Source: an uncultured virus (IMG/VR IMGVR_UViG_3300036800_000502) (lineage: Duplodnaviria > Heunggongvirae > Uroviricota > Caudoviricetes). From it: 20,561 nt of DNA. Below, one piece after another: positions 1-17,690 of this stretch. The first letter of the stretch is position 1, and every line of letters starts with the position of its first letter. The stretch lies in the IMG/VR virus record IMGVR_UViG_3300036800_000502. One strand, 5' to 3'. The notes under the pieces were generated by a model. That model was given only the letters and a program-made list of their open reading frames with translations, made no database searches and was not told the origin of the DNA. A program made the translations under genes and the position numbers.

Positions 1-91
1 CCCCGTATTAGTTGGGTTGCCGGCCAATTGTGCCGACACAGAAGGTGTGGCCGTTATCGGACGAAGCACCACCGGGTTTGCACACAGAGGC

Positions 92-116
92 TTACGCGTA
101 ACCTTACGCGTAAGGT
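92..116. promoter_or_regulatory. Tandem palindromes, operator-like
   Basis: TTACGCGTAA at 92-101 and 104-113. The second lies within the perfect 16-bp palindrome ACCTTACGCGTAAGGT (101-116), upstream of or at the 5' end of the helicase gene. Confidence 0.45.
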
Positions 117-157
117 GCGTTAGACCTGGTCAGAGCCCTGTCCGCCCCCGGGTGTGG

Positions 158-2122
158 ATGTCGCCGCACAGAGAAGACGTGGGACAAACCGCTGGGGTCA
201 GTCGATTGGGGTACCGGGCCGTGCTCACCGGCGCCGGCGTCGATCCGGTGATCGAGCTGGTCTTTCCCTACGACGCCACCCACGCCCACACCGGCCAGTG
301 CCTTCGCGAGTGGGTCAAGGGCCTCGATGACCGACGGTGGGACGCCGCCAACAAAGTCTGGCTGCTCCTCGATCCCGCCTCTCTGCCCAAGGGGGTCCTG
401 AAGGAAGCCGGGTTCTCGGTGGTGGGGGAGGACGGTCAGCCGATCAAACGAGGCGACGTCATCGTTCCCCGACGAGTCAGGCCGAAGCTGGACGAGGCCG
501 ACCTCGCCATCCCCGAGTGGTTCGGGCTCGAGCTCTACGACTACCAGCACACCGGGGCGATCATGGTGGCGGCCGGGCGGAGCGCCCTCTGTGATGTCCC
601 CGGGCTCGGGAAGACCCGCCAGGGCCTTGCCGCCGCTGCGGCCCTCGGGGCCAGGCGCACCTTGATCCTCTGCCCACCGGTGGTCGTCACCCACTGGGAG
701 CGGGAGGTCACCCAATCAGGTCTGGGGGTGGAAAGGGCGGCTCTCGCCGCTACCGCCCCCGCCGGCGGTAGCGAGAAAGAGGAGCCGGCGGCGCTTCCGA
801 ACCTCGCACCACCGGAGCCCACAGGGGTCGCCGGCTCCACATCCATTCTATCGGACGCCATAGTCCCGAACGTGAGCACCTTCCGTTCGGGACGCAAAGC
901 TCCAGCACTACCGGACGCTGGCGTAGTGGTGGTGCCAGACACCCTGGTCGCCGCCCGCCCGTCGCTGGCCAGCCAACTGGTGGCCTGGTGCCCAGACGTG
1001 ATGATCTACGACGAGGCTCATCGGGCCAAGACTTGGGACTCGAGGCGGTCGCGGGTGGCCCGGCGGTTGGCAGCGGTCTCCACCCATGTGATCTGCGCCT
1101 CGGGGACCCCACTGTTTGCCAACCCCACCGAGCTCGCCCCGCTGCTGGCCATGACCGGCCACCTCGATGAGGTTTTCGGTGGGAAGGCCGAGTTCTGCGA
1201 ACGGTACGCCAAGCAGAACAAATACAAGGCGTGGAAGCCCCGGCGCGATCGCCTCCCCGAGCTGCGGCGGAAGCTGGACGCATCGGTGTGGGTCCAGCGA
1301 AACAAGGACCAGGTGGCGACCGACCTGCCAGCGAAGTCTCGCCGGGCGGACTGGGTGGATGTCGACACCTCCGATTACAACGCCGCCTACCAAGAGGTCG
1401 TCGCCCAGGTCGACCAGTGGTTGGACAGCTACGCCGGACGGCCGGACGACGAAGCCATCGAGGAGTGGTGCGGTGGCCAGTTGGGCCTGATCTCCGTGCT
1501 GCGGCGGGCCGCCGGCCTGGCCAAGGTGGAGTACGCCACCGAAATGGTCGCCGAATGGGTGGCGGCCAACACCGAGATCGACTCCAACGGCCGGGCCGTT
1601 TGTACCCGGCCACTGGTCGTCTGGACCCACCATCGGGTGGTCACCGAAGCGATGGCGGCGTCAGTCCCCCTGGCGGTCGGGGGAGCGGGAGTCATTGCCG
1701 GGGGCACGTCACACAACGAGCGGGCCCGGCTGGTCGACGACTTCCAGGCCGGTCTGATCCCGGTGCTGGTCTGCTCTATCGCCGCCGCCGGAGTCGGGAT
1801 CACCCTGACCAGAGCGTCGGACATGGTGTTTGTGGAGACCGACTGGACACCCGCCCTCATAACTCAGGCAGAGGACAGATGCCACCGAATCGGCCAGGAG
1901 AACCATGTGACCGCCACCACGTTGATTGCACCGGGAACTCTGGATGAGCACATCCAGTCCGTGCTCCGGAAAAAGGCCATCACCCTCGATGCGGTGATGA
2001 CGGGCGGCGACCACGCCGTGGCGGTGTCTCCCCGCGAAGGGAAGACCGACGCCGCTTCGGTCCTGTCCACCATCGTCAAGGACTGTCTGGCCCGCCGCCA
2101 GCACGGGGAGAAGGCAGCATGA
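158..2122 (+). CDS. SNF2/SWI2-family (SMARCAL1/HARP-like) helicase-like ATPase
   Basis: LYDYQ (Q motif), DVPGLGKT (Walker A), DEAH, SGTP, GITLT, QAEDRCHRIGQ (motif VI). N-terminal FPYD...RRWDAANKVW segment is HARP-like. Start uncertain (in-frame GTG 47, ATG 158, GTG 179). Confidence 0.9.
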   Translation: MSPHREDVGQTAGVSRLGYRAVLTGAGVDPVIELVFPYDATHAHTGQCLREWVKGLDDRRWDAANKVWLLLDPASLPKGVLKEAGFSVVGEDGQPIKRGDVIVPRRVRPKLDEADLAIPEWFGLELYDYQHTGAIMVAAGRSALCDVPGLGKTRQGLAAAAALGARRTLILCPPVVVTHWEREVTQSGLGVERAALAATAPAGGSEKEEPAALPNLAPPEPTGVAGSTSILSDAIVPNVSTFRSGRKAPALPDAGVVVVPDTLVAARPSLASQLVAWCPDVMIYDEAHRAKTWDSRRSRVARRLAAVSTHVICASGTPLFANPTELAPLLAMTGHLDEVFGGKAEFCERYAKQNKYKAWKPRRDRLPELRRKLDASVWVQRNKDQVATDLPAKSRRADWVDVDTSDYNAAYQEVVAQVDQWLDSYAGRPDDEAIEEWCGGQLGLISVLRRAAGLAKVEYATEMVAEWVAANTEIDSNGRAVCTRPLVVWTHHRVVTEAMAASVPLAVGGAGVIAGGTSHNERARLVDDFQAGLIPVLVCSIAAAGVGITLTRASDMVFVETDWTPALITQAEDRCHRIGQENHVTATTLIAPGTLDEHIQSVLRKKAITLDAVMTGGDHAVAVSPREGKTDAASVLSTIVKDCLARRQHGEKAA

Positions 2123-2760
2123 GGTCGCACTGGAACTCCAGGGATCGTGGCGACGGCGGCCAGGCCCTCCTCGAGGTCCTCGTGGCCTTCACCATCCTGG
2201 TGGGAGCCATCGCCGCCATCGGGTACGGAATGGTCCAGACCACTTCCGCCGGGGTCGACGCCACCCAGATGTCCAGCGAGACCACCCTGGCCAACCAGGC
2301 CATCGTCCAAGCGGAGGCGCTGCCGTTTGGCGCCGTCCAATCCGGCGCCAATGCCGCCCAACTCGCGGCGGGGCTCAACCATGCCGGCTCGGCGCTGCTG
2401 GACTGGCCCCAGGTGACGTACAGCGGGACCGCCTACACCTTGACCCTTAACCCCGGGTCCAATCCAGTGTTTGTCGGCAACGTCCCGACCACCAACCCCG
2501 CCACTGCCGGAGAAGCGCCGCTGGCCCCGTTCGTCTCCACCCACACCCTGGGGAACGTCAAATACAAAGTGGCGGTGTTCGTCACCGCGGTTACCGGGCA
2601 CCCGACACTGGATCTGGTGAGGGTCACTGCCATCGTGGAACGAACACTCGCATCCTCGACGACTGATCCGACGTGCCCACCGCTACCCACGACGTGTCCG
2701 CCAGTGACAACCACCACGGTGGGAGTGGTGGCTCAACAAGTCGAACTGGGGGCACAATGA
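2119..2760 (+). CDS. Type IV minor pilin/pseudopilin-like protein (PilV-like)
   Basis: Class III signal G|QALLEVLVAFTILVG with Glu at +5, then a hydrophobic helix. ATGA overlap with the helicase stop. Confidence 0.8.
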   Translation: MRSHWNSRDRGDGGQALLEVLVAFTILVGAIAAIGYGMVQTTSAGVDATQMSSETTLANQAIVQAEALPFGAVQSGANAAQLAAGLNHAGSALLDWPQVTYSGTAYTLTLNPGSNPVFVGNVPTTNPATAGEAPLAPFVSTHTLGNVKYKVAVFVTAVTGHPTLDLVRVTAIVERTLASSTTDPTCPPLPTTCPPVTTTTVGVVAQQVELGAQ

Positions 2761-4034: not shown

Positions 4035-4035
4035 C

Positions 4036-5855: not shown

Positions 5856-7595
5856 GTGGGAACCACGAGAGACGGAATCCAACTCGGGCATCTGGTTGGC
5901 AAACGCGGCCCCTTCAAGGTGCCGCTGACGGTGGCCACCGAGACGCTCGGCATCCTGGCCGTGAAGCGGGCGGGGAAGTCCAACGTCGCGGTGGTGATGG
6001 CCGAGGAAATGTTCGATGCCGGCATCCCGTGGGTGGCCATCGACCCCAAGGGCGACTGGTGGGGCGTCCGGTCATCCAAGGACGGTAAGGGGCCAGGGCT
6101 GCCGGTGGTCGTCTTCGGCGGGGAGCACGCCGACGTGCCCCTGGAGCCCACCGCCGGGCACATGCTGGCCAGTCTCATCGCTGAGCGCCACCTGACCTGC
6201 GTGCTCGACGTGTCGGGCATGACCAAGGCCGACCTACGTCGGTTTCTCACCGATTTCACCACCACCCTCTACCGGAAGAACCGCGAGCCCCTCCACGTCT
6301 TCTTCGAGGAGGCCGACGAGTACATTCCCCAGCGGGTGATGGGAGAGATGGCCAAGCTGGTCGGGGCCTGCGAGACGCTCGTAAAACGCGGTGGCTTTCA
6401 TGGCATCGGGGTCACCCTGGTGACCCAACGGTCGGCCAGCCTGAACAAAGACGTACTCACCCAGTGCGGCACCCTCATCGCTCTCCGCACCACCTCGCCC
6501 CAGGACCGCAAGGCGATCCTCGGATGGGTCCAGCAACACGCCGACGGGGCCGAGATAGTGGACGCTCTGCCCGGGCTCCCCAACGGCGAGGCTTGGGTGT
6601 GGTCTCCCGAGTGGCTGGCCGAAGACCTGACCCATGTGCAGTTCCGCCAGCGCCGGACGTTCGACTCCGGGGCGACGCCGGTAGTCGGGCGCAAACGGGC
6701 CGTACCGACGACCCTGGCCGACGTCGACCTGGCCAAGATCAAAGAGGAAATGGCCGAAACGGTGGAACGGGCCAAGGCCGACGACCCGAAGGAGCTCCGC
6801 AAGCGCATCAAGGAGCTGGAGCGGCAACTGGCCAGCCAGCCGGCGGCGGAACCGGTCGAGCCGGTGGTGGTCACCGAGTACGTGGTCCACGCCGGGTCAG
6901 TCGAGGCCATGGCGAAGATCCGGGACACCATCGGCCTGTTCTCCGACGAGATCGTCGGGCAGCTCGCCGCCCTCTCGACCGAGTTGGCCGACGCCCAATC
7001 GAAGGTGGGGGACAAGCCCACCTCACTGGCGCGGACCCCCCATGTCCCTGTCCGGACATCTGGTGGGCCACAACGAACCGCCGAACTACCGAAACCGCAG
7101 GTCAAAAGGTCGCAACCGACAGAGCCTTCAACGGACACCTCGGTGTCGGGGCCCCAGCGGAAACTGCTCGTCGTCCTGGCCACCTACGGGCCCCGGACGA
7201 AGCGCCAGCTCGCCCTCCAGGGCGGCTACTCGGAGAGGGGCGGCGGCTTCAACAACCCGTTGGGAGCCCTCCGCACCGGTGGCCTCATCACTCGGGGCGA
7301 ACCCATCACCATCACCGACGAAGGGCTGGCGGCGCTCGGGGGCTACGAGGAGCTCCCTCGAGGCAGCGCCCTGCTGGACCACTGGTACAGCCAGATTCGG
7401 GGCCCGGAGAAGAAGATCCTCTCGGTCCTGGTGCAAGAGGGCGAGCTGACGAAGGCCGATCTGGCCGAGCGGGCTGGGTATCAGCCGACCGGTGGCGGCT
7501 TCAACAACCCGTTGGGCCGACTCCGCACCTTGGGGTTGGTGGACAGGGGCGACCCGATCCGGCTGACCGACGAGTTCTCCGAGGCGATCTCGTGA
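5856..7595 (+). CDS. HerA/FtsK-superfamily (DUF87-like) ATPase with two C-terminal winged-helix-like repeats
   Basis: ILAVKRAGKS (variant Walker A), IDPKGDW, FFEEADEY (Walker B), LVTQRS. A coiled coil (ELRKRIKELERQL) precedes two GGGFNNPLGxLRTxGL repeats. Confidence 0.8.
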   Translation: MGTTRDGIQLGHLVGKRGPFKVPLTVATETLGILAVKRAGKSNVAVVMAEEMFDAGIPWVAIDPKGDWWGVRSSKDGKGPGLPVVVFGGEHADVPLEPTAGHMLASLIAERHLTCVLDVSGMTKADLRRFLTDFTTTLYRKNREPLHVFFEEADEYIPQRVMGEMAKLVGACETLVKRGGFHGIGVTLVTQRSASLNKDVLTQCGTLIALRTTSPQDRKAILGWVQQHADGAEIVDALPGLPNGEAWVWSPEWLAEDLTHVQFRQRRTFDSGATPVVGRKRAVPTTLADVDLAKIKEEMAETVERAKADDPKELRKRIKELERQLASQPAAEPVEPVVVTEYVVHAGSVEAMAKIRDTIGLFSDEIVGQLAALSTELADAQSKVGDKPTSLARTPHVPVRTSGGPQRTAELPKPQVKRSQPTEPSTDTSVSGPQRKLLVVLATYGPRTKRQLALQGGYSERGGGFNNPLGALRTGGLITRGEPITITDEGLAALGGYEELPRGSALLDHWYSQIRGPEKKILSVLVQEGELTKADLAERAGYQPTGGGFNNPLGRLRTLGLVDRGDPIRLTDEFSEAIS

Positions 7596-8155
7596 CCATC
7601 ACTGTCGTTCACCCCGCCGGCAACCATGTGACCATCGGCCTCGTCTCCTGTGGCAAGAAAAAGGCAGACCGGGCGTGCGCGGCCCGGGACCTGTACCAAG
7701 GCGAGTTGTTCAGGCGGGCGTCGGCCTACGCCGAGCGCACCTACGACCACTGGTTCATCCTCTCCGCCCAGCACTACCTGGTCCACCCTGACGAGATTCT
7801 CGATCCGTACGAGAAGCCCATCGCTTCGATGTCGGTGGCCGACCGTCGCCACTGGGCCCTGATCGTCGAGTCCGACATCCGGCTGGGCCATGGTGCCGCC
7901 ACCGAAGGCCGGCACCAGTTCCCGCCGGACACTCCGCAGCTCCGGGTCGGCGCCTGGATCAGCGAGGGCAAAAAGCAAGGAGCCCACCGGTCGGCAGACA
8001 TCTACCTTCATGCCGGGTCCGACTACGCCGAACCCCTCCTGGAGCGATTCGCGACCATGCGCCACGACGACTGGCAGACCGTCCACCGACCGCTTCAGGG
8101 CCTCGGGATCGGGGACCAGCTCCACTGGTACGGCGAGCGGGTGGCCGCCGCCTGA
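7592..8155 (+). CDS. DUF6884-like (YaaA-like fold) protein, 187 aa
   Basis: LVSCGKKK...ARDLYQGELF...WFILSAQHYLVxPD...PYE...HAGSDY...PLQGLGIGDQLHW pattern. GTGA overlap with the ATPase stop. Confidence 0.75.
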   Translation: MTITVVHPAGNHVTIGLVSCGKKKADRACAARDLYQGELFRRASAYAERTYDHWFILSAQHYLVHPDEILDPYEKPIASMSVADRRHWALIVESDIRLGHGAATEGRHQFPPDTPQLRVGAWISEGKKQGAHRSADIYLHAGSDYAEPLLERFATMRHDDWQTVHRPLQGLGIGDQLHWYGERVAAA

Positions 8156-8180: not shown

Positions 8181-8189
8181 GCCGCCCTC
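8181..8189 (+). promoter_or_regulatory. Upstream motif A (GCCGCCCTC-N9-start), copy 1
   Basis: 9 nt before ATG 8199. Confidence 0.75.
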
Positions 8190-8198
8190 TTCTTAGGC

Positions 8199-8762
8199 AT
8201 GAGCCGAGACCAGCACAACCGCCAGCCCCAAGGGACCCCCGACGGCGGCCAGTTCGCCGCCAATGTCCGTCCCGAGCTTCCTTCGCTCTTGACCGACGGG
8301 GACACCCGGACCAGCCCGCTACCCCCAGCCGTCCCGAGCCATCGTCACACCAACCCCGACGGGACCCCCGGCGGGTGGGTGGCCGACACCGCGCATGTGG
8401 ATGACTCAGCCATCGTCAGAGAGGCGGCCCGGGTCCTCGATCGGGCCCGGGTCCTCGGGTTCGCTCAGATCCTCGACAGCGCCCACATCGGCGGCAACGC
8501 CACTGTCTCGGGCGGGGCGGTGGTCGGGGGCGAGTGCTCGGTCGACGAGAACGCGATCGTCACCGGCAAGGCGGTTCTCGACGGCCAGGTTCACATCTCC
8601 GGAGGGGCCGAAGTCAGCGACAAGGCGAGGCTGAGCGGCAACGCCCGGATCTTCGGTGGGGCCATCGTCAGGGGAAACGTATTCGGCGATCGAGCCATCG
8701 GCGGCAGCGCCATTGTGGCCTCCGGTGCCGTGTTGGCCGATCCGAACCCGGTCCGATCCTGA
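8199..8762 (+). CDS. GGQFA-tagged left-handed beta-helix (hexapeptide repeat) protein
   Basis: N-terminal RQPQGTPDGGQFAANVRPE, followed by 6-residue periodic A-x-V/I-x-G/D-x repeats. Confidence 0.8.
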   Translation: MSRDQHNRQPQGTPDGGQFAANVRPELPSLLTDGDTRTSPLPPAVPSHRHTNPDGTPGGWVADTAHVDDSAIVREAARVLDRARVLGFAQILDSAHIGGNATVSGGAVVGGECSVDENAIVTGKAVLDGQVHISGGAEVSDKARLSGNARIFGGAIVRGNVFGDRAIGGSAIVASGAVLADPNPVRS

Positions 8763-8775
8763 TGGCACAGAGGTA
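8755..8775 (+). promoter_or_regulatory. Upstream motif B, copy 2
   Basis: GATCCTGATGGCACAGAGGTA, 3 nt before GTG 8779. Confidence 0.65.
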
Positions 8776-8778
8776 GTT

Positions 8779-9198
8779 GTGGCACCCAAACGCAATCCCC
8801 CTCCGGTCAAGCTGGAGGCCAACAAGGATCTCCCGGAGCTAGCCCGGGCCACATCCCTCGGTCTCGGGGTGCTGCGCCACGCCAAGGTCTACTCCTGGTC
8901 GGATCTGGGCACCATGATGCCCGTCGGCCTGGAGTTGACCCAGGGCCAGTACGACCTGATGACCGCCAACGCTCAGTACCTCGGCCTCATCCGGTTCGGT
9001 TCGCCGGCCGGCCGGGAGAGAAAGCCGACGGTAACCATCGCTGTCTGCCCCGAATGCGACGGCTGGGTCCTGATGGCGTCGGGGCCTGCCCCGGCCAAGT
9101 GCAAGACGACCCTCGGGTGTACCGGCCATCCGATGAAGGCCGGGGTGGCCAAGAAGACCGAGATCAAACGCCAACCTCAACCCGCCCTATCGGCATAA
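8779..9198 (+). CDS. Hypothetical protein with possible Zn ribbon, 139 aa
   Basis: CPECxG...CKTTLGC. Start placed at GTG 8779 by motif B spacing; this also avoids overlap with the upstream gene. Confidence 0.7.
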   Translation: MAPKRNPPPVKLEANKDLPELARATSLGLGVLRHAKVYSWSDLGTMMPVGLELTQGQYDLMTANAQYLGLIRFGSPAGRERKPTVTIAVCPECDGWVLMASGPAPAKCKTTLGCTGHPMKAGVAKKTEIKRQPQPALSA

Positions 9199-9210
9199 CG
9201 GAGACGAACC

Positions 9211-9495
9211 ATGCAACTCGACATCCAGTCGAACCGGACCGGCCGGCTTCTCCGGTGGGTCGACGGCCAGTGGTCTGGGGACCCCGAGTGGGTCGAGATC
9301 GCCAAGCAGACGTGCCACCACCGCCAGCCCATCGCCCTCACTCCCACCGGACCGATCGTCGAGGCCGATGCCTCCGACCCGGTGTCGGTGGTAGCGGTGC
9401 TGTCGTCGGTGGTGACCGAGCCGGCCACCCTCGGCGGCGACTTCCCACCGGAGGTCGACGAAGCCTTCGAGCTCGAGCTGGGGGCAGTGGGCTGA
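9211..9495 (+). CDS. Small acidic hypothetical protein
   Basis: GGAG ribosome-binding site near 9200, GC3-rich codons, fills the intergenic gap. Confidence 0.7.
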   Translation: MQLDIQSNRTGRLLRWVDGQWSGDPEWVEIAKQTCHHRQPIALTPTGPIVEADASDPVSVVAVLSSVVTEPATLGGDFPPEVDEAFELELGAVG

Positions 9496-9511
9496 CGGGG
9501 CACCCGGCAGC

Positions 9512-9520
9512 GCCGCCCTC
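9512..9520 (+). promoter_or_regulatory. Upstream motif A, copy 2
   Basis: 9 nt before ATG 9530. Confidence 0.75.
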
Positions 9521-9529
9521 ATCCTGAGT

Positions 9530-9778
9530 ATGGACCCACCGACTAGCCCCGATCTATCCCGGGGAGAAGGGGTGCCTGCCTCGCCCGGCTCCACATTTCC
9601 CCGGTCCAAGGCACCCCGTCGGCAGGGGCCACCCACCGCAACAATCACCAAGGACAGCCCGACTCAATGGTTCGGCGATCGAGGACTCTGCCAGAACTGC
9701 GGGCTCATCGCTCACGAAGACCACGCCCTCGGCCTGGTCCACACCGGGACACTCCGGGCGGAGTGCAACCATCCATGA
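9530..9778 (+). CDS. Small Cys/His-containing hypothetical protein
   Basis: Motif A upstream; C-terminal CQNC...H..H...C. Confidence 0.6.
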   Translation: MDPPTSPDLSRGEGVPASPGSTFPRSKAPRRQGPPTATITKDSPTQWFGDRGLCQNCGLIAHEDHALGLVHTGTLRAECNHP

Positions 9779-9954
9779 AGTGCCAGATCGTTCGATCCGT
9801 GGACATTGGGAAGTGTCCGACGCTGAGGCTGGATGCGGGCCACTACCGAGAAGACGGATCTTGCGGGTGTAGGGGCCTCGATCCGCCGAGGGAACTCCCC
9901 CTCTACGTGTCACTGGCCGCAGCGGTAGCGACGGACTCATCAGGGACGAGGTAG
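9775..9954 (+). CDS. Small Cys-containing hypothetical protein, 59 aa
   Basis: ATGA overlap with the previous stop; MKCQIVRS...KCP...HYREDGSCGC. Confidence 0.5.
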   Translation: MKCQIVRSVDIGKCPTLRLDAGHYREDGSCGCRGLDPPRELPLYVSLAAAVATDSSGTR

Positions 9955-10013
9955 GACGCCTCCGACAGGGCGCCGGCGGCTCATTTTGAGGGACGGCCCC
10001 GGCGGTCAGTTTC

Positions 10014-10022
10014 GCCGCCCTC
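10014..10022 (+). promoter_or_regulatory. Upstream motif A, copy 3
   Basis: 9 nt before GTG 10032. Confidence 0.75.
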
Positions 10023-10031
10023 TAGCAGGGT

Positions 10032-11243
10032 GTGGGTACCGACCAGAATCGAGTCCGACCCGGCGTTCCGGCCGGTGGCCAGTTCGCCACCAACCCTCAC
10101 CCCGAGGCCTCGGGGCTCGACCTCTCGGACCTGGACCTGGTGGACCTCCCCGACGATCCGCAATCCACGAATCGCGATTCACGGATCGTCCCTCAACCAA
10201 ACCCGCCGGCACCGGTTGACCAGTTTCCCGGGTTGGCTCCAGGCGTCGCCGACCGGCTGGATCCCGAGGTGTTCCGTGACGCCCGCCAAGCGGTAGCCCT
10301 CATGGTCTCTCGCCCCGGTGATCCGGTGGCCGCAGCCAAGGCCGAACTGGCGGTCGGCAGGGTCGGCCTGATGGTCGACATGGCCGCCCGGTTGCAAGAG
10401 GTCAGGAACCAGGCCGACCTCGAGCTGCCCGACCCGCTCGACCCGGACTTCGTGGCCAACCGGGTCGCCGAGTCGGGCCAGGCCGTCCGCGAGGTGCTCG
10501 GCGCCATCCGGCCGCTGGGGTTGCCGGCCGGGGAGACCCTCGTCACCGTCGACTCCCACCGTCCGGCCGAACGGGCCTTCAACGCCGCCGCCGCCCAGTT
10601 CCCGGCAGACTGGCTGGCGGCGTCGCAGTCGCTCGCCATGCCCCTCCGGGCGCGGGTTTCGGCCGGCCGCAACCACTACATCGAGGCCAAGTCGTACCGA
10701 CACGACGAAGGCACCCAGCTGCGGGAGGCACGGGTGTGGGCGCACTCGCCGTTCACCGTCCCACCCGACAGCGCCACCAACATCGAGCGGACCGAGCACG
10801 GTGTGTCGTGGTCAGAGATCCGCCCGGTCAAAGTCAAGAGCACCAAGCGGGCCGCCATCATCACTGTCCCGTCGCCCGGTCGGAATCCCGCCTTTGCCGC
10901 CCGGGTCGCCACCCACGAGCTCACCCACCGGATGGAAGACGCCAACCACCAACTGGGCCGGCTCGAACAGGCGTTCCTCGACCGTCGGTGTGTGGACACC
11001 GACGGCAACCCCAACCGGACCCACTCCTACCGGGGGATCCGCCACAAGGAGCGGATCCGGGACGGCGGGTTCGTCGACGAGTACACCGGGAAGATCTATC
11101 CCGACCCGACCTACCGGGAGGTGCTCTCCACCGGCACCGAAGCGGTCTTCAACGGGGACCACGGTGGGCTGGTGGGGAGGGGAGGGGCCCAGCCCGACCC
11201 GGATCACCGGGCCTTTGTGCTGGGCTGCCTGGCCGTGGCCTAA
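10032..11243 (+). CDS. GGQFA-tagged zincin-like metallopeptidase
   Basis: N-terminal RVRPGVPAGGQFATNPHPE; C-terminal VATHELTHRME (HExxH) ... YTGKIY ... EVLSTG (third-ligand Glu helix). Confidence 0.75.
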   Translation: MGTDQNRVRPGVPAGGQFATNPHPEASGLDLSDLDLVDLPDDPQSTNRDSRIVPQPNPPAPVDQFPGLAPGVADRLDPEVFRDARQAVALMVSRPGDPVAAAKAELAVGRVGLMVDMAARLQEVRNQADLELPDPLDPDFVANRVAESGQAVREVLGAIRPLGLPAGETLVTVDSHRPAERAFNAAAAQFPADWLAASQSLAMPLRARVSAGRNHYIEAKSYRHDEGTQLREARVWAHSPFTVPPDSATNIERTEHGVSWSEIRPVKVKSTKRAAIITVPSPGRNPAFAARVATHELTHRMEDANHQLGRLEQAFLDRRCVDTDGNPNRTHSYRGIRHKERIRDGGFVDEYTGKIYPDPTYREVLSTGTEAVFNGDHGGLVGRGGAQPDPDHRAFVLGCLAVA

Positions 11244-11268
11244 CCCGCACCGGCTGATCGCCCCGATC

Positions 11269-11277
11269 GCCGCCCTC
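11269..11277 (+). promoter_or_regulatory. Upstream motif A, copy 4
   Basis: 9 nt before GTG 11287. Confidence 0.75.
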
Positions 11278-11286
11278 TATGTGGGT

Positions 11287-12609
11287 GTGACCGACTTCGT
11301 TCCGAACCGGGTACGGCCAGGGATCCCCACAGGCGGACAGTTCGCGGCCAGCCAGCGGGCCGAGTCCGGGGTCAGGTTGTCAGAGATCGAGCCAGAGCCA
11401 ACGGAGACCGAATGGACCTTGGCTAAGGATCTCCAGCCAGGAGACCGGTTCCAGGTCGGCGACGGCCCAGTCGTTGTCGTGGACGAGTTCATCCCCGACG
11501 GGAGCGCCTATGAGAACGGGTCTCCCGTAAACCCGGAAGTGCCTCACGACGCTCTGGGGAGAACCCAAGATCTGGTGAGATGCCACCTTGAGACCGGGGA
11601 CCGCTCCGGGTATCAGCTGTTCGGTCGGGGCGGCGGTGTCCACAAGCTGGTCGGAGAGACCAGGCCCCAAGACTTCGCCGAGCTCGTAGCGGCCCGCCAA
11701 GCCTCCATCGAGGGGGAGGGGTACGTGCCGGCCATAGCTCACTCGTACGTGACCAGCCCCGGCTCTTCGGCCCATCGCCAAGAGTGGTGGGACAAGAGCT
11801 TCGTGGCCGCCGAGTACGGCGACCACCAAGCCGGCGAGTACCCCCACATGCCCGACGACTACACCCCGTCGCACGGGAGGGGGAGATCCCTCGACGGCCA
11901 CCGCCGTACCCACCGGATGGCCTACCGGGGAGCCGGGGTGACCCTCCGGATGCCGTCGGCCACCGCCATCAAGGCGTTCGCCAAGGAGACCCCCGGCCAC
12001 ACCTTCGACATCCCGGTCTCGGCCACCCACCCCGAAGGCCAGGTCGCCGGCTGGGTGCGGGTCACCGTGGACTCCGACGGAAACTGGGCCACCCGGGGTC
12101 TGGGGTTCGACCCGGCCGACGCCGCCTACGTCTCGGAGTCCGTCCAGTGCGTGCTGTCGGCCCGCCGGCCGTCCCGGGCACTGGCGGAGACCGGGGACAT
12201 CCTGGAGCGCCGGCGGGAGCGGGCTGCTCACATCGGGGCCAGGACCACTCCGGTGGTCTCGGGATGGGTGAGAGCCGTCGGCTTCGACAAGTCCACCTCC
12301 ACCATGGTGATGACCACCGCCGCCCACCAGTACGGGTTCCAGGTCCCCAGCTCTATCTACCAAGAGCTGGCGGCCTCGGACGCCCCCGGTCAGGTGTTCA
12401 ACCAAAAGGTCAAGGGCCGGGCGGTTCGGATCGAGGTCAACCAGTGCCCCAAGTGCTCCCGGTTCACCGCCGACGGGACCAGCCACCGGTGCCCGCCGAA
12501 GGAATCCCGCCCGTCAGCCCCCACCTACGCCAGCCGGCTGGCCCGCCAGCGGGCCCGGACCGCCCGATGGGGACGATCCCGGCCAGTGCCGCCCTCTAAC
12601 AGAACATGA
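11287..12609 (+). CDS. GGQFA-tagged multidomain protein with KTSC-like domain and CxxC-HxC finger, 440 aa
   Basis: MTDFVPNRVRPGIPTGGQFAASQRAE; VVSGWVRAVGFD...YGFQVPSSIYQELAASDAPGQVFNQKVKG matches the KTSC pattern; CPKC...HRC. Confidence 0.75.
   Translation: MTDFVPNRVRPGIPTGGQFAASQRAESGVRLSEIEPEPTETEWTLAKDLQPGDRFQVGDGPVVVVDEFIPDGSAYENGSPVNPEVPHDALGRTQDLVRCHLETGDRSGYQLFGRGGGVHKLVGETRPQDFAELVAARQASIEGEGYVPAIAHSYVTSPGSSAHRQEWWDKSFVAAEYGDHQAGEYPHMPDDYTPSHGRGRSLDGHRRTHRMAYRGAGVTLRMPSATAIKAFAKETPGHTFDIPVSATHPEGQVAGWVRVTVDSDGNWATRGLGFDPADAAYVSESVQCVLSARRPSRALAETGDILERRRERAAHIGARTTPVVSGWVRAVGFDKSTSTMVMTTAAHQYGFQVPSSIYQELAASDAPGQVFNQKVKGRAVRIEVNQCPKCSRFTADGTSHRCPPKESRPSAPTYASRLARQRARTARWGRSRPVPPSNRT
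12588..12596 (+). promoter_or_regulatory. Upstream motif A, copy 5 (inside the 3' end of the previous CDS)
   Basis: 9 nt before ATG 12606. Confidence 0.75.
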
Positions 12610-13385
12610 CCACCTCCAACCCGAACCGAGTTCAACCCGGAGTTCCGGCCGGCGGCCAGTTCGCCGCCCAACACCGCCCCGAGTCGGACCTGAAGATCGG
12701 CCGCCGCAACCCGTTCGTCGACATGTCGGACGACGAGATCATCCAAGCCGTCCGTCAGGCCTTCGATTCGGCCACCCCCAGCTTTCTGGAGGAAGTGGCC
12801 AGTGCCGACGCCCCCGAGCTTCGGATGTTGGCGGCGCAGAACCCGAACACGCCGGAACCCGCCTTGGAGCGGCTGTCCGAGGACACCGATCGCAACGTGA
12901 GCAGCGCCGCCAACACGACCCTCCGTTTCCGGAACGACAACTCCGACCCGCCGCCGGATGTCGACGAGGACGACGAACCGGACCCCGAAGACCCCGAAGG
13001 TCCGGACACCATCCCCGACTACATCGGTGCCGTCCACTACGCCCTCTTCCCCGAGGGGGAGACCCAGCGAGCGCGCCGGGGCCACGAGTTCCTCCCTCCG
13101 GAGCTGATCCACGCTCTCCCCGAGCTGTACTCGACCGAGGGTGTGTCATTGGCCGAAAAGCAGATCCACGCCCACTACTTCGTCGGGGGCTGCGACTGGT
13201 ACATCGCCGAGCTGGACCGGTCGGACGGGACAGCTTTCGGTCACTGCGACCTCGGCATGGGCTTCCCCGAGTGGGGGTACGTGAACCTGGTGGAGCTGGA
13301 GTCGACCTCGACCAACGCCGGGTTCCCCGTCGAGCGGGACTGCTACTTCACCCCGGCCACGGCCAAAGAACTTGGGCTGGCATGA
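12606..13385 (+). CDS. GGQFA-tagged protein with LRV/HEAT-like repeat and C-terminal DUF2958-like domain
   Basis: RVQPGVPAGGQFAAQHRPE; AAQNPNTPEPALERLSEDTD; HYFVGGCDWYIAELD...AFGHCDLGMGFPEWGYVNLVEL...VERDCYF. Confidence 0.8.
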   Translation: MTTSNPNRVQPGVPAGGQFAAQHRPESDLKIGRRNPFVDMSDDEIIQAVRQAFDSATPSFLEEVASADAPELRMLAAQNPNTPEPALERLSEDTDRNVSSAANTTLRFRNDNSDPPPDVDEDDEPDPEDPEGPDTIPDYIGAVHYALFPEGETQRARRGHEFLPPELIHALPELYSTEGVSLAEKQIHAHYFVGGCDWYIAELDRSDGTAFGHCDLGMGFPEWGYVNLVELESTSTNAGFPVERDCYFTPATAKELGLA

Positions 13386-14134
13386 CCCCGATGGCCCGCC
13401 AACCCAAGGGCATCCCCACCGGCGGCCAGTTCGCCTCAGTGGCCAGCCCCGAGTCGGAGGTGGAACTGGAGGAGCCGGCGTTCGAGGACCGCCTGTTCGC
13501 CACACTCGAAGATCCCGACAGGGTGGAAGTCCCCGGGTACACGGCGGTCTACCAGTATCTCCAAGAGATGGTCGAGGTGGCCAACATCGGGGGCGACGAT
13601 GTGCGGGAGATGGTCCTGACGTCTCTCGATGAGATGACCGACATCCTGGCCAGTGTCAAAGAAACGGTAGCGAGGGTGGATGAACTATCGGCCATCGGCC
13701 ATCACTCACCGGCCTACCTGGCTGAGTTGGAACGGCGCCAGCAAGACCGGGCCGCCTTCACCCAGGCCGCCGTCTCCGGGTACGTCACCGAGGCTCTCGA
13801 TATGGCCAAACGGTCGAGGGAGAACCGTTGGCACCACATCTTCAGTGCGACCACGATCACTCCGAAGGCCAGGGAAAGGATCGAACAAGAGGTCCGCATC
13901 TTCTGTGAAGCGGCCATGGATTCCATGCTCTGTACCGGCCAAGTCGCTGAGCAGTTCGGCAAGGACCTCTACCAGAGCCGGAACGGAACCGGCCGCGGGT
14001 TTGAGAACTCGCAGGGGTTGGAGGATCCGTCAGCCATCGCCGACACCAAGTCCCTCGCTGTCCTGGCCGCCGTCTACGTCCCGTCCCGGCTGGTCGCCGG
14101 AACGGACGGGAAGCTCCACATCGTCGAGGGTTGA
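13382..14134 (+). CDS. GGQFA-tagged hypothetical protein, 250 aa
   Basis: ATGA overlap with the previous stop; MTPMARQPKGIPTGGQFASVASPE (alternative ATG 13391). Confidence 0.75.
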   Translation: MTPMARQPKGIPTGGQFASVASPESEVELEEPAFEDRLFATLEDPDRVEVPGYTAVYQYLQEMVEVANIGGDDVREMVLTSLDEMTDILASVKETVARVDELSAIGHHSPAYLAELERRQQDRAAFTQAAVSGYVTEALDMAKRSRENRWHHIFSATTITPKARERIEQEVRIFCEAAMDSMLCTGQVAEQFGKDLYQSRNGTGRGFENSQGLEDPSAIADTKSLAVLAAVYVPSRLVAGTDGKLHIVEG

Positions 14135-14150
14135 GGGGTCCCGGGCCGGC

Positions 14151-14159
14151 GCCGCCCTC
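14151..14159 (+). promoter_or_regulatory. Upstream motif A, copy 6
   Basis: 9 nt before ATG 14169. Confidence 0.75.
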
Positions 14160-14168
14160 ATTATGAGC

Positions 14169-14411
14169 ATGGTCAGCAAGTCGGCATTCGTCAATGGGGC
14201 GGTAACCGGAGCGGTCGTTGTAACAGTGATGGCACTCGGCCTCGGCGCCGCTGGCTGGGCCTACCTGGCCTGGTTGCTCGGCACCAGCCTGGTCGCCGGG
14301 ACTGCCTGGCACCTCCGGGCCGTCCGGAGGGCTGCGTATGCCCATCAGCGGGCCTACCAGGCCGCCTGGGCCCGTCGTAGCCGCCAGGGCTCGGACCTGC
14401 CGGTCGGCTGA
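14169..14411 (+). CDS. Small membrane protein, 80 aa
   Basis: Two hydrophobic segments and an Arg-rich C-terminal tail; motif A upstream. Confidence 0.65.
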   Translation: MVSKSAFVNGAVTGAVVVTVMALGLGAAGWAYLAWLLGTSLVAGTAWHLRAVRRAAYAHQRAYQAAWARRSRQGSDLPVG

Positions 14412-14431
14412 GTTGGCTGGCCGGCAGGATC

Positions 14432-14440
14432 GCCGCCCTC
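14432..14440 (+). promoter_or_regulatory. Upstream motif A, copy 7
   Basis: 9 nt before GTG 14450. Confidence 0.75.
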
Positions 14441-14449
14441 TATATGGGC

Positions 14450-15481
14450 GTGACTACCACCTCCGTCATCCCCAACCGCCAGCCGCCGGGCGTCCCTATC
14501 GGTGGCCAGTTCGCCGCCAAGGTCACCCCGGAGTCCGACCTCGAGCTCGTCGACCCCTCCCAGGCCGTACCGGACCCCTCTGAGACCCCCATCGAGCCCA
14601 AGCTGAGCGACCTCGGGCGGGACGACCGGATCAAGGCTCTCCGGGACGAGATCGACCGAGCCATGGACAACCTCTCTTCTGAGGAGGGGTGGCGAGCCTT
14701 TCTCGACTCCAACGCCAAGTTCCACAAGTACAGCTTCGGCAACCAGATGCTCATTGCCTGGCAGAACCCCGACGCCACCCGGGTGGCCGGCTTCAACACC
14801 TGGAAAAACGAGTTCGGACGGACCGTCAACAAGGGCGAGAAGGCCCTCTGGATCCTCGCCCCGGTGGTCAAGAAGATCAAGGAGAAGAACGCCGATACCG
14901 GGGTGGAAGAGGAGAAGGGCCGGACCGTCGGTTTCCGAGGCGTCGGCGTCTTCGACATCAGCCAGACCTCCGGCCCGGACCTGCCCGAGGACCCGAGGAT
15001 CGCCCAGAGCGAGCTCGACGAGGACGAGATCCCCGACGGCATGGTCGACGACATGAGCCGGGTCATCGAGGCCAACGGTTTCAAGATCGAGTTCGGCGAC
15101 ACCGGCAAGGCCGGCGGTTGGACCGACTACCGGACCAAGACGGTACGGATCTCAGACGATGCCACTCCTGCCGGCAAAGTGAGGACTCTCGCCCACGAGG
15201 CGGCCCACATTGCCCTCGGCCACGGCGAGGCCATCAACGAGTACCACACCAGCCCGGGCGGCAAGCGCCCCGACATGGAGGTGGAGGCCGAGTCAGTGGC
15301 GTACGTGCTCAGCCGCCACTACGGGATGTCGACCATCGGGAACCAGTCGTTTGGCTACATCGACGGGTGGGCCAAGGGCAACAAAGACCTCGTGAAGAAA
15401 ACCGCCGAGAAGGTGATCGCCGGGGTCCGGACCGTCCTCGACCAGGCTGCGCCACAGTCGACAGAGCCGGCGGCGGCGTGA
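14450..15481 (+). CDS. GGQFA-tagged ArdC-like protein (ssDNA-binding domain plus HExxH zincin domain)
   Basis: WRAFL...FHKYSFGNQMLI..QNPDATRVAGFNTWK..GRTVNKGEKALWILAP...VFDISQT (ArdC-N/DUF1738 pattern); TLAHEAAH...EVEAESVAY. Alternative ATG 14444. Confidence 0.88.
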   Translation: MTTTSVIPNRQPPGVPIGGQFAAKVTPESDLELVDPSQAVPDPSETPIEPKLSDLGRDDRIKALRDEIDRAMDNLSSEEGWRAFLDSNAKFHKYSFGNQMLIAWQNPDATRVAGFNTWKNEFGRTVNKGEKALWILAPVVKKIKEKNADTGVEEEKGRTVGFRGVGVFDISQTSGPDLPEDPRIAQSELDEDEIPDGMVDDMSRVIEANGFKIEFGDTGKAGGWTDYRTKTVRISDDATPAGKVRTLAHEAAHIALGHGEAINEYHTSPGGKRPDMEVEAESVAYVLSRHYGMSTIGNQSFGYIDGWAKGNKDLVKKTAEKVIAGVRTVLDQAAPQSTEPAAA

Positions 15482-15498
15482 GCGGGCTGTTGGCCCCG

Positions 15499-15507
15499 GC
15501 CGCCCTC
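15499..15507 (+). promoter_or_regulatory. Upstream motif A, copy 8
   Basis: 9 nt before GTG 15517. Confidence 0.65.
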
Positions 15508-15516
15508 ATCAAAACT

Positions 15517-15558
15517 GTGCAGACTCCCGGTACCCCCGACCCCCAACACCAGGCCTGA
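15517..15558 (+). CDS. Putative 13-aa leader mini-ORF (MQTPGTPDPQHQA)
   Basis: Starts at the motif A position and stops 3 nt before the in-frame GTG of the next gene. Confidence 0.35.
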   Translation: MQTPGTPDPQHQA

Positions 15559-15561
15559 CCG

Positions 15562-16299
15562 GTGCTGGGTCGCGACCATGCCCTCCTGGGCGCTGTCGGG
15601 TGGGTAGGCCTGGCCCCGCTGGTGGCTCCCCAGTTCGCCCACACCACTCTGTCGCCGGCGGAGATCGGCATTGGCGGAGTGGTGAGCGCCGCCTTCGCCC
15701 TCGTCCCCGACATCGACGAGCCCGGCAGCACCGTCTCCCGGAAGCTCGGTCCGATCAGCGAGGCCGTCTCCCACCTCACCAAGGCCCTGGCTGGTGGACA
15801 CCGGAAGGCCACCCACAGCCTGTTGTTCGTTGGAGCGGTCGGGGTAGCCACCGTCATCGCCGCGCACTACATGATCGCCCCGGCGGTCATCGTCGGACTG
15901 TCGTTCCTGTTGGTGTTCCGGATGCTGGTCCCCAGGATGTTCCGGTTCCTGCCGCTGGTGAGCCTGGGCATGGTCGGCCTGGCCGGACTGTCGGCGTGGT
16001 GGATCTTCCGTCACTCAGGGATGGAGGGCTGGCTCCCGTACGCCTGTGCCGGCGGGATCCTCTGGCACATGATCGGAGACACCCTGACCGTCGAGGGGGT
16101 CCCATACTTCTGGCTGCCCGGCGTCAAGCGGCTTCAGGACGCCAGGATCGCCGTCCCGCTCGTCGGCCACTGCGGATCCGTCCGCGAGACGTTCCTCGGG
16201 TGGGTCATGGGACTCGGGTTGCTGTGGATGTCGGCCATCTTGGTGCTGCTGCCCCTGGTCCACTCCACCTGGCCGACAATCAAGCTCCCAGCCACCTGA
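15562..16299 (+). CDS. YdjM-like membrane-bound metal-dependent hydrolase
   Basis: MLGRDH, ALVPDIDEPGS, HRKATHS and HMIGDTLT..G motifs; multiple transmembrane helices. Confidence 0.85.
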   Translation: MLGRDHALLGAVGWVGLAPLVAPQFAHTTLSPAEIGIGGVVSAAFALVPDIDEPGSTVSRKLGPISEAVSHLTKALAGGHRKATHSLLFVGAVGVATVIAAHYMIAPAVIVGLSFLLVFRMLVPRMFRFLPLVSLGMVGLAGLSAWWIFRHSGMEGWLPYACAGGILWHMIGDTLTVEGVPYFWLPGVKRLQDARIAVPLVGHCGSVRETFLGWVMGLGLLWMSAILVLLPLVHSTWPTIKLPAT

Positions 16300-16985
16300 T
16301 GCCTGCCCCACCGGTACTCGCTCCACCGGCCCACCCGGCCAAGTTCTCCCCGACGATCCTGGTCGTGCTGGGCAAGGTGCTGACCGCCGAGGCGCGCCGA
16401 GCTGGCCACCCCCTCACCGTGCTGGACCCCATGGCCGGGGTCGGGCGCATCCACAGCCTGGAGGGGGACTGGGCCACCACCGGGGTAGAGCTCGAGCCTG
16501 AGTGGGCCGACCAGCACCCTCGGACCCAACAGGGGGACGCCACCGCTCTTGCCTTCCCGGATGGGAGCTTCGATGTCGTCTGCACCTCGCCGGCCTACGG
16601 GTCACGGATGGCCGATGGCCATGAGGCCAAGGACAGCTCGCACCGGATCACCTACAAGCACATGCTGGGCCGACCGCTCTCGCCCAACAGCGGCGCCGCC
16701 CTCCAGTGGGGCCAGAAGTACCGGGACCTGCACCAGGCTGTTCTGGCCGAGATGGTGCGGGTCGTCGCCCCCGGGGGGCTGGTGGTCGTCAACATCTCGG
16801 ACCATATCCGGGCTGGGGTCACCCAACCGGTGAGCCGCTGGTGGGCGGGGGAGATGCGCTCAGCAGGCCTCAAGATCGACCGCCGGATCAAAGTGCCGAC
16901 GCCGAGAATGCGATTTGGGCAGAACCACCAGCTCCGGGTGGCCCACGAGTGGGTCTTCGTCGGGCGAAATCGGGCCATTCGATGA
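16299..16985 (+). CDS. Orphan SAM-dependent amino-methyltransferase (probable N4-C/N6-A DNA MTase), 228 aa
   Basis: HPAKF, VLDPMAGVG (motif I), GVELE, GDA, DVVCTSPAY (motif IV, SPPY-like), RVVAPGG. TGATG overlap with the previous stop. Confidence 0.8.
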   Translation: MPAPPVLAPPAHPAKFSPTILVVLGKVLTAEARRAGHPLTVLDPMAGVGRIHSLEGDWATTGVELEPEWADQHPRTQQGDATALAFPDGSFDVVCTSPAYGSRMADGHEAKDSSHRITYKHMLGRPLSPNSGAALQWGQKYRDLHQAVLAEMVRVVAPGGLVVVNISDHIRAGVTQPVSRWWAGEMRSAGLKIDRRIKVPTPRMRFGQNHQLRVAHEWVFVGRNRAIR

Positions 16986-16988
16986 AAA

Positions 16989-16997
16989 GCCGCCCTC
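16989..16997 (+). promoter_or_regulatory. Upstream motif A, copy 9
   Basis: 9 nt before ATG 17007. Confidence 0.75.
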
Positions 16998-17006
16998 TTA
17001 GGAGAT

Positions 17007-17489
17007 ATGGAGACTCAATCAAGAATCCGCCCGGGAACCCCGGCCGGCGGTCAGTTCGCCGCAAATGCCCACCCCGACGCTGGCGCCGAGCTGTTGTCGG
17101 CCGCCGCACCGAAGCTGCCGCCCTGGGGGCAGGAGCTCGATAAACGGATCAACCTCGAGGTCCGGAAGCACACCTCCGACAAGTACGAAAGTTTCGACAT
17201 GGGCACCATCCTCGACGCCGACGAGGATGCGTTGACCGAGGTCTACGGCGAGCAACGGGCCGACTGGCTGAGCGGGTTGACGGTCGAGATCGAGTCCGAC
17301 ACCTACCTCGCCTTCGGGGCGTCCGACGACGGCCCCGCCGAATACGAGACCGTCGGCAAAGTTTCCGTCTTCGAGGCCGGAGGACGACTGGTCACCAGCG
17401 CCGCCTTCACCGACCAGGACGACCCCGAACTCGGGCCCGTCTCCGTCTGGGCTGCTCAACACCAATCAGATTTGAGGGAGGTCGCATAG
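17007..17489 (+). CDS. GGQFA-tagged acidic hypothetical protein
   Basis: METQSRIRPGTPAGGQFAANAHPD; body rich in Asp/Glu. Confidence 0.78.
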   Translation: METQSRIRPGTPAGGQFAANAHPDAGAELLSAAAPKLPPWGQELDKRINLEVRKHTSDKYESFDMGTILDADEDALTEVYGEQRADWLSGLTVEIESDTYLAFGASDDGPAEYETVGKVSVFEAGGRLVTSAAFTDQDDPELGPVSVWAAQHQSDLREVA

Positions 17490-17491
17490 TC

Positions 17492-17668
17492 ATGTTCGTC
17501 GTGTACCCAACCGGGAACCACACCGAAGTGGGTGGCCCCGAGAAGAACGCCAAGCCAACGTCCCGTTACGCCGACCGCATCCAGGCCCCTCTGGCCAAGG
17601 TCATCGGCATCCGCTCCCAGCGGGCAACTCCGGCGACCGACGACGGTCGCTTCGACGATGCTGCCTGA
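17492..17668 (+). CDS. Small hypothetical protein, 58 aa (not in ORF track)
   Basis: ATG 2 nt after the previous stop with GGGAGG upstream; MFVVYPTGNH...RFDDAA; fills the gap. Confidence 0.45.
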   Translation: MFVVYPTGNHTEVGGPEKNAKPTSRYADRIQAPLAKVIGIRSQRATPATDDGRFDDAA

Positions 17669-17690
17669 TTTTCGCCGCATGGTTCTAGGC

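Follow-up and report, generated by a model that had tools for sequence, protein, structure and literature searches.

We examined a 20,561-nt stretch of DNA filed as an uncultured virus (IMG/VR record IMGVR_UViG_3300036800_000502), called the window below, in which seven otherwise unrelated proteins begin with the same short N-terminal peptide around a GGQFA core. This peptide, the header, is a real, widespread and uncatalogued short linear motif, and it probably marks proteins that travel or act with mobile DNA. It is maintained by selection at the peptide level, is portable between unrelated protein bodies, and is limited to large mobile elements of actinobacteria, each with a header dialect of its own. 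Window proteins were scanned against Pfam, NCBIfam and PHROG, and sequence patterns were read in six frames.

Peptide-level conservation of the header

The pattern M-x(4-8)-R-x-P-x-G-x-P-x-GGQFA-x5-[ED] occurs exactly seven times in the window, always on the + strand, and the gene starts are those that a sequence-only reading of this DNA had first given (Table 1). That reading had described the seven N-termini as aligning without gaps; they all align, with small gaps at most, placed before the Arg. Nine positions are invariant among the seven (M1, R, G, P, G, G, Q, F, and A). A profile built from the seven headers recovered each window copy with an E-value of 1e-16 to 1e-20, and no eighth copy was found in the window with it. 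The bodies are unrelated, as had been claimed: after masking of the headers no two window header proteins fell into one BLASTP cluster, and their Pfam families differ. Each protein is a single module of 160-440 aa; four of the seven bodies have no assignable domain and three have no Pfam family.

Over its approximately 30 residues the header consists of an extended R-x-P-x-G-x-P, a GG turn, Q-F-A, an acidic residue and Leu, and the residue after Q/E is nearly always F, otherwise W, Y or L. In 132 headers spanning two Actinomycetota classes, nine positions reach a conservation of 90% or more. We collected 165 header open reading frames (ORFs) from 29 loci of a pattern scan, the locus L001 and the window; in 153 of them the header core lies 11-16 residues after the start, and 164 are co-directional with the query match. 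The true starts do not lie downstream of the header, since on plasmid pACHL01 of Pseudarthrobacter chlorophenolicus A6 the coding sequences annotated by RefSeq start where the headers do (6885, 18611, 19270, and 26062 are examples) and the spacing in the window agrees. The sequence-only reading had also seen no Sec or Tat signal, and this held for the larger set: none of the 153 complete header proteins, the window's included, has the hydrophobic core that follows the N-region of such signal peptides (transmembrane-like criterion: a 19-residue window with a mean hydropathy of at least 1.6). SecY and SecG encoded on the plasmid were rejected as a route, the header proteins being without a hydrophobic core. 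The GGQ lies within the protein, 13-19 residues in from the N-terminus, and the whole protein follows it; a Pup-like modifier was ruled out because GGQ/GGE is not at the extreme C-terminus. A double-glycine leader and a clamp-binding motif were rejected by inspection of the pattern.

Codon entropy at the conserved header residues R, P, G, and A was 1.42-1.96 bits, versus 1.65-2.08 bits for the same amino acids in the bodies, and all synonymous codons are used at these residues. Where a header gene sits inside an operon, an ordinary Shine-Dalgarno sequence replaces the DNA motif that stands before other header genes. The constraint is therefore on the peptide, as had been proposed from the synonymous codon variation. 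The opposite view, that a nucleic-acid element such as a promoter, operator, mRNA leader or recombination handle is conserved and the peptide is incidental, could draw on this DNA motif, which ends exactly 8 nt before the start codon in six of the seven header genes, and on the perfectly repeated header DNA of some polyvalent proteins (see below), which could aid module shuffling. The motif and the coding header are separable, however, as the motif also precedes many headerless genes and a tRNA: of 122 copies on pACHL01 only 32 stand before header genes, most of the other 90 being followed by an ATG a few bases on, and one copy on an Actinotalea contig precedes the tRNA. Together with the Shine-Dalgarno sequences of the operon genes and the normal codon entropy in the header, this makes a nucleic-acid-level explanation very improbable indeed.

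In an AlphaFold2 model from the 132-row alignment the header is a coil without secondary structure (predicted local distance difference test score, pLDDT, 69), and it is thus predicted to be disordered. The alternating conservation in R-x-P-x-G-x-P suggests an extended peptide that turns one face towards a partner. At the variable header positions (n = 16) identity was 0.46 within an element versus 0.30 between elements, giving dialects such as ATxHAEP in Micrococcaceae, xxxNPEST in an Acidimicrobiaceae element (G003), and PGARAEVDVDL in G005. Such element-specific dialects are consistent with one reader per element, or with concerted evolution. The header had no match among Pfam or NCBIfam models, a profile search of the PDB gave 0 matches at E-values up to 10, and no description of it was found in the literature searched, which included main-text passages of PMC5512222 and PMC5576092.

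Distribution on large actinobacterial elements

By megablast against PLSDB the window matched nothing beyond 40 bases of one header on the Paenarthrobacter plasmid pYJN5-1. At the protein level, tblastn with one window header found 129 places in total on five of 72,556 PLSDB plasmids, all from Micrococcaceae and 375-440 kb in size, with 17 to 40 or more places each. Plasmid pYJN5-1 has 16 GG[QR]F-type N-terminal headers in 30 kb (14 by profile) and 36 in its 440 kb, and pACHL01 has 49 headers among 541 annotated features, approximately a tenth. The pattern scan, run on one genome per species, yielded 29 loci in Arthrobacter, Pseudarthrobacter, Sinomonas, Actinotalea, Cellulomonas, Acidimicrobiaceae, and unclassified actinobacterial metagenome-assembled genomes. 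In Arthrobacter terrae all 34 copies lie on two contigs of ∼190 kb each, and in the closed Acidimicrobiaceae chromosome all 16 copies lie within 83 kb, in an element that ends at a tyrosine integrase beside clpP and clpX. Sinomonas has two copies on a chromosomal fragment (L008, ∼9-14.5 kb) that is collinear with pACHL01 at 101-106 kb and has no machinery, which is evidence that pieces of these plasmids integrate. Among 300 other genomes sampled across the class, none had a header at E ≤ 1e-5 (with up to 25 candidates scored per genome). With copies confined to elements and none in these 300 genomes, the header is therefore not an ordinary chromosomal feature, and the possibility that it is spread over ordinary chromosomal proteins can be set aside.

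A search with the 132-row profile against 1.84 billion cluster representatives gave 3,484 clusters at E ≤ 0.001 and 141 at E ≤ 1e-10. In nearly all of the 3,484 clusters the header lies at residues 1-35, and the match begins at or before residue 12 in 138 of the best 150. The small proteins P0022 and P0133 have a full header and then a second, partial header-like match ∼30 residues on, which suggests local duplication of the header.

In 50,697 phage records we found 0 matches with a window header, and a search of phage records with a header stretch of P0002 also gave 0 (both single-peptide tblastn, low-complexity filter on). A search of IMG/VR gave four matching loci. One of them, the 52-kb contig L078, is filed as viral and has five header genes in a row (9771-12341); it looks like a piece of the same family of plasmids or integrative and conjugative elements rather than a phage.

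Polyvalent proteins, secretion machinery and the candidate role of the header

Five giant proteins (1,282-2,992 aa) have 4-7 internal headers, one before each module, and their domains (Phage_Mu_F, ART-PolyVal, ADP-ribosyltransferase, GNAT, NUDIX, topoisomerase IB, and ParB-like nuclease) identify them as polyvalent proteins. A junction of the type hydrophobic-x-K or AAAW[DN]E stands ahead of each internal header. With a header before each module and after a conserved junction, the solo proteins of the window therefore resemble released modules of a polyprotein that keep the header at the N-terminus, and the solo header is homologous to the header before every module of the giant proteins. The MuF part of P0060 matches 798 actinophage records, gp13 of Gordonia phage Jabberwocky among them, which has no header. 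As the two single-peptide searches did not find the header itself in phage records and IMG/VR gave the four loci only, it is the MuF domain in the fused proteins that ties the family to phages.

Polyvalent proteins of phages and conjugative elements are predicted to enter the new host with the DNA, and metallopeptidases are predicted to process them, in the main-text passages of Iyer et al. (2017; PMC5512222). The header proteins share with them an ArdC-N domain joined to a zincin peptidase (ArdC-N + M78 in the window), weak LPD29 matches, and, in the fused forms, MuF, ART, GNAT, and NUDIX. Like those proteins, they are encoded by mobile elements that also have type IV secretion genes: five megaplasmids and the integrase-bounded chromosomal element contain homologous arrays, and nine gene families are common to the window and related elements (SNF2, HerA-like ATPase, a small zinc-ribbon protein, YdjM, and five header proteins). 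Polyvalent proteins have 2 to 15 domains per polypeptide, whereas the window proteins have one module each and match solo versions; here every module is a gene in its own right and has its own promoter-like motif, and the same passages do not mention a header.

Two explanations without delivery bear on these fused forms. The header might be a relic of polyprotein fission, a neutral linker or a generic expression or solubility aid that has no reader, in keeping with its predicted disorder and its presence in both solo genes and fused modules. We consider this quite improbable, as a linker would not need the invariant R, P, G, GGQF, and E, nor would it be expected to keep nine positions nearly fixed across two classes and recur in thousands of clusters while synonymous sites vary freely. 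Alternatively, the header might be a processing or turnover signal, that is, a protease recognition site or a conditional N-degron (e.g., a cut after GGQ that exposes Phe), timing the release or destruction of modules. The conserved junctions, the near-constant F (else W, Y or L) after Q/E, the metallopeptidase processing predicted in the work cited above, and the zincin-type motifs of two window header proteins (M78 of ArdC, and HELTH in the 403-aa protein) would fit such a signal, as would three Clp N-domain proteins that adjoin a RefSeq-named DNA-transfer gene on pACHL01. Yet in solo proteins just 5-9 residues precede the conserved Arg and a cut there frees nothing useful, the junctions lie upstream of the header so that the header stays on the product, and no Clp N-domain genes turned up in the other loci examined. 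A processing signal is thus distinctly unlikely. For the same lack of conservation, Clp N-domain proteins were rejected as the reader of the header.

The relatives of the window (the Micrococcaceae plasmids, and integrated elements no shorter than 100 kb) are equipped with a type IV secretion set of Gram-positive type, Tad-like pilus genes, replisome genes, and a sigma factor of their own. A VirB4-like AAA_10 ATPase was present on the header-bearing record, contig or region in five of five cases. The elements sampled best, G003 and G004 (Acidimicrobiaceae and Actinotalea) and pACHL01, have in common Pol III alpha, SSB, an AAA_5 ATPase, a ∼1,000-aa protein that weakly resembles a mobilome membrane protein family, and a ∼830-aa ATPase named by RefSeq as a type IV secretion DNA-transfer protein, for which the 828-aa member had 0 PDB matches. 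An FtsK-like protein of 1,300-1,400 aa is common to G003 and pACHL01. The latter also encodes a CHAP hydrolase, Tad/type IV pilus genes, secY, and secG, and its run of header genes at 200-228 kb is directly downstream of the RefSeq-named DNA-transfer and FtsK-like genes. No Phage_capsid or Phage_Mu_F gene was found on either of the two complete plasmids or on any header-bearing contig, and no phage structural Pfam family among the 101 proteins of the G003 element. Together with the VirB4-type ATPase in all five cases, this rules out virion packaging for this element family. The sequence-only reading had taken the header as an address that loads diverse cargo into a virion, a secretion channel or another compartment; the portable label on unrelated cargo, its restriction to mobile elements and the linked secretion-type machinery bear this out in part, and loading into a virion falls away in this family.

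Most of the cargo has no recognizable family. Among 150 header proteins, 125 had no Pfam family at E ≤ 0.001; above the curated cut-offs there were six DUF7007, three ArdC-N + M78, and two DUF2958, with weak LPD29 matches besides. Header-bearing proteins of pACHL01 include a Fic protein and an NAD-dependent DNA ligase. The recognizable cargo (ArdC, DUF2958, DUF7007, DNA ligase, and Fic) belongs to types of protein for which travel with DNA is known or predicted. On the same plasmid (NC_011879.1) we noted secG/secY, the 990-aa sigma-70 protein, two Pol III alpha/PHP genes, and the header-bearing ligase (11238-12836, 377249-380221, and 303213-305318).

We regard it as quite possible, if tentative, that the header is a docking handle for co-transfer with DNA. 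The seven genes would then encode free-standing effector modules that belong to a large conjugative element of actinobacteria, and the header would be a short linear docking motif recognized by a single partner common to them all. This partner would couple the module to the mobile DNA or to the transfer apparatus, so that the protein would enter the recipient with the DNA. The route here would be the VirB4-type secretion system of the element, and for phage-type polyvalent proteins it would lead from the capsid; the solo genes would be equivalent to released modules of a polyprotein. In its furthest form, the header would be a sequence-conserved N-terminal 'travel with the DNA' signal that takes up to ∼50 different proteins, a tenth of what the elements encode, into recipients through the Gram-positive-type type IV secretion system (T4SS) and is also found on phage-type polyvalent capsid cargo; this form we find somewhat doubtful.

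The internal proteins of phage T4 have a short N-terminal capsid targeting sequence, which like the header is a short peptide on unrelated cargo and serves as an address there. The header is approximately three times longer, and a T4-type system would call for a capsid and a prohead protease on the same element, where the search for capsid genes described above found none. The MIX motif of type VI secretion effectors is an N-terminal marker on otherwise unrelated effectors and permits their listing from sequence; the header is alike as an N-terminal marker and differs in sequence, secretion system, and phylum. For conjugative T4SSs, ArdC of pSa and RP4's TraC1 primase are transferred during conjugation according to the text passages of Iyer et al. 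(2017; PMC5512222). A type IV secretion substrate signal would call for a secretion system on the same element, and on this count pACHL01 has, besides the VirB4-type ATPase, the CHAP hydrolase and the RefSeq-named DNA-transfer protein. The header system shares an ArdC homologue and the VirB4-type ATPase with these conjugative systems; it differs in that an N-terminal peptide common to dozens of substrates is undescribed in the literature searched.

Several points weigh against transfer. The type IV secretion signals known to us sit at the C-terminus or within the protein rather than at the N-terminus. Within the window there is no type IV secretion gene. The RefSeq DNA-transfer name of the 821-aa pACHL01 protein and its 828-aa G003 homologue is unsupported by Pfam or NCBIfam. 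No TrwC-type relaxase was found on any header-bearing contig and MOB-suite classed all five plasmids as non-mobilizable, and for this reason we infer, rather than observe, conjugation of these elements. One of the cargo proteins is a DNA ligase, for which action in the donor is just as conceivable. Because the same header occurs with capsid-type and secretion-type machines, a receptor specific to one machine is not the most economical explanation. Transfer of header proteins through the T4SS is accordingly a candidate role, and the partner of the header is putative. A complex prediction that paired the header (57-row alignment) and the 828-aa ATPase family (39-row alignment), run without controls, gave no verdict (score 0.00).

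A reader on the cell side would explain the header in both capsid-type and secretion-type elements. In that case the header would be a docking peptide for an in-cell hub, such as the element DNA, the replisome or SSB, or another element-encoded scaffold, acting in the donor or after entry. The DNA-acting cargo (the ArdC single-stranded DNA-binding domain and the ligase of pACHL01) fits, as do the Pol III alpha, SSB, ligase, and sigma factor that the elements encode for themselves, and the dialects would suit an element-encoded reader. On inspection, however, the header is unlike the clamp-binding consensus (Q-L-[SD]-L-F), and for ∼125 of 150 header proteins no DNA-related domain is known; we consider such a hub unlikely.

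Window neighborhood, promoter-like motif and implications

The window has a G+C content of 67% and every plausible gene is on the + strand. Its DNA is present in a soil metagenome sequencing run; among the sequencing runs that carry it, no RNA run is listed. The gene order is SNF2 helicase, three pilin-like genes, HerA/FtsK ATPase, DUF6884, the header stretch, YdjM, a methyltransferase-like gene, and a large repeat protein; coordinates are given in Table 1.

Table 1. Genes and promoter-like motifs of the window, with supporting matches and homologues.
Feature	Coordinates	Strand	Remarks
SNF2-family helicase, 5' end cut by window edge	2..2122	+	Pfam; homologues L027, L026, L030, L034, pACHL01
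Three consecutive type IV pilin-like genes (213, 453, 588 aa)	2119-5802	+	
HerA/FtsK-superfamily ATPase, two C-terminal winged-helix repeats	5856..7595	+	Pfam HerA_C, DUF87, MarR_2; homologues G003, G004
DUF6884 protein	7592-8155	+	
Promoter-like motif GCCGCCCTCT	8181..8190	+	exactly 8 nt before start codon
Header protein 1, 187 aa	8199..8762, header 8199-8303	+	GGQFA core 8244; beta-solenoid/hexapeptide-repeat body: Pfam B_solenoid_ydck, Hexapep; PHROG 7964, 5070; homologue L027
Header protein 2, 403 aa	10032..11243, header 10032-10133	+	GGQFA core 10074; HELTH (HExxH) motif; no Pfam family
Header protein 3, 440 aa, GTG start	11287..12609, header 11287-11391	+	GGQFA core 11332; weak KTSC match
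Header protein 4, 259 aa	12606..13385, header 12606-12710	+	GGQFA core 12651; DUF2958 body; header-bearing homologues G003, pACHL01
Header protein 5, 250 aa	13382..14134, header 13382-13480	+	GGQFA core 13421; no family
Header protein 6, 343 aa from GTG 14450	14450..15481	+	GGQFA core 14501; header, then ArdC-N ssDNA-binding domain + M78/zincin-like peptidase (Pfam ArdcN, Peptidase_M78)
YdjM-family membrane hydrolase, headerless	15562..16299	+	Pfam; 54% identity to G003 copy; also L001, L004, pACHL01
Header protein 7, 160 aa	17007..17489, header 17007-17105	+	GGQFA core 17046; no family
Further motif copies before header genes	10014-10023, 11269-11278, 12588-12597, 14432-14441, 16989-16998	+	
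One-base variant GCCGCCCTCA	9512-9521, 14151-14160	+	same 8-nt distance before headerless genes starting 9530, 14169

Several header proteins recur on other elements. Homologues of header protein 2 at L026 and L015 show 45-46% identity; this protein may be a second metallopeptidase module beside ArdC. Its residues 290-382 have a weak likeness to the C-terminal part of a PHROG 'minor head protein'. The body of header protein 3 is conserved across elements (L027, L015, L026, L035, and L029), and its family is common to G003, G004, and pACHL01, with the header present in all. The start of header protein 4 overlaps the stop codon of the header protein 3 gene, and the start of header protein 5, the sole one of the seven without an upstream DNA motif, overlaps the stop of header protein 4 (ATGA). 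Header protein 6, the ArdC homologue, has header-bearing homologues at L011, L013, and L018. An ATG at 14444 is also open for it (345 aa); the start at 14450 is favored because of its fixed 8-nt spacing from the upstream motif. Its AlphaFold2 model from a 4-row alignment was poor (mean pLDDT 48.5) and was not used further.

The SNF2-family helicase and the YdjM-family hydrolase are conserved neighbors of header arrays. The pilin-like trio sits between the SNF2 helicase and the header genes, which adjoin in the relatives L026 and L027; the second pilin-like protein (453 aa) has a clear GFTLTE prepilin methylation motif. The HerA/FtsK-superfamily ATPase is the sole candidate translocase within the window, and its paired winged-helix end recalls the DNA-recognition end of Streptomyces TraB. 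In the Acidimicrobiaceae element the HerA-like and SNF2 homologues have LAGLIDADG domains (likely inteins) and Pol III alpha has an intein splicing domain (L035:15099-17603, L034:3934-6813, and L036:8494-13395). The open-ended protein at 17532-20561 (>1,010 aa) shows a hydrophobic segment at its N-terminus together with numerous 'SGTTWT...SISC...C[VY]AVG'-type repeats, and it matched no Pfam, NCBIfam or PHROG family.

All eight motif sites of the window read GCCGCCCTC[TA], six before header genes and two before headerless genes, and with one mismatch or fewer allowed there were 14 matches versus 3.8 expected. Local versions are GCCG[CT]ACAC on the Micrococcaceae plasmids, CCGCACATC in Actinotalea, and TCCCATCTA in the Acidimicrobiaceae element. 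We infer that this GCCGCACAC-type motif serves as the -10 region of a promoter used across the element to make leaderless transcripts. It may be read by the element's own sigma factor, the candidates being the 990-aa sigma-70 family protein of pACHL01 and an ECF-type factor in G003.

The element family is notable in having its own promoter motif, sigma factor, replisome genes, and pilus genes, and on pACHL01 secY and secG as well. The solo plasmid genes are linked to polyvalent modules, and the giant proteins may thus be seen as built from, and falling apart into, labeled units. If the header is an address or docking label, the effector sets of giant actinobacterial plasmids and integrated elements could be listed from sequence only; such a set would span the 3,484 clusters, most of them without a known domain. 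The header would then also offer a portable tag for protein delivery between actinobacteria and a handle on its reader. Should the 'travel with the DNA' signal prove true, it would be the first effector-translocation signal known for conjugation in Actinomycetota, with one label serving two unrelated DNA-delivery machines.

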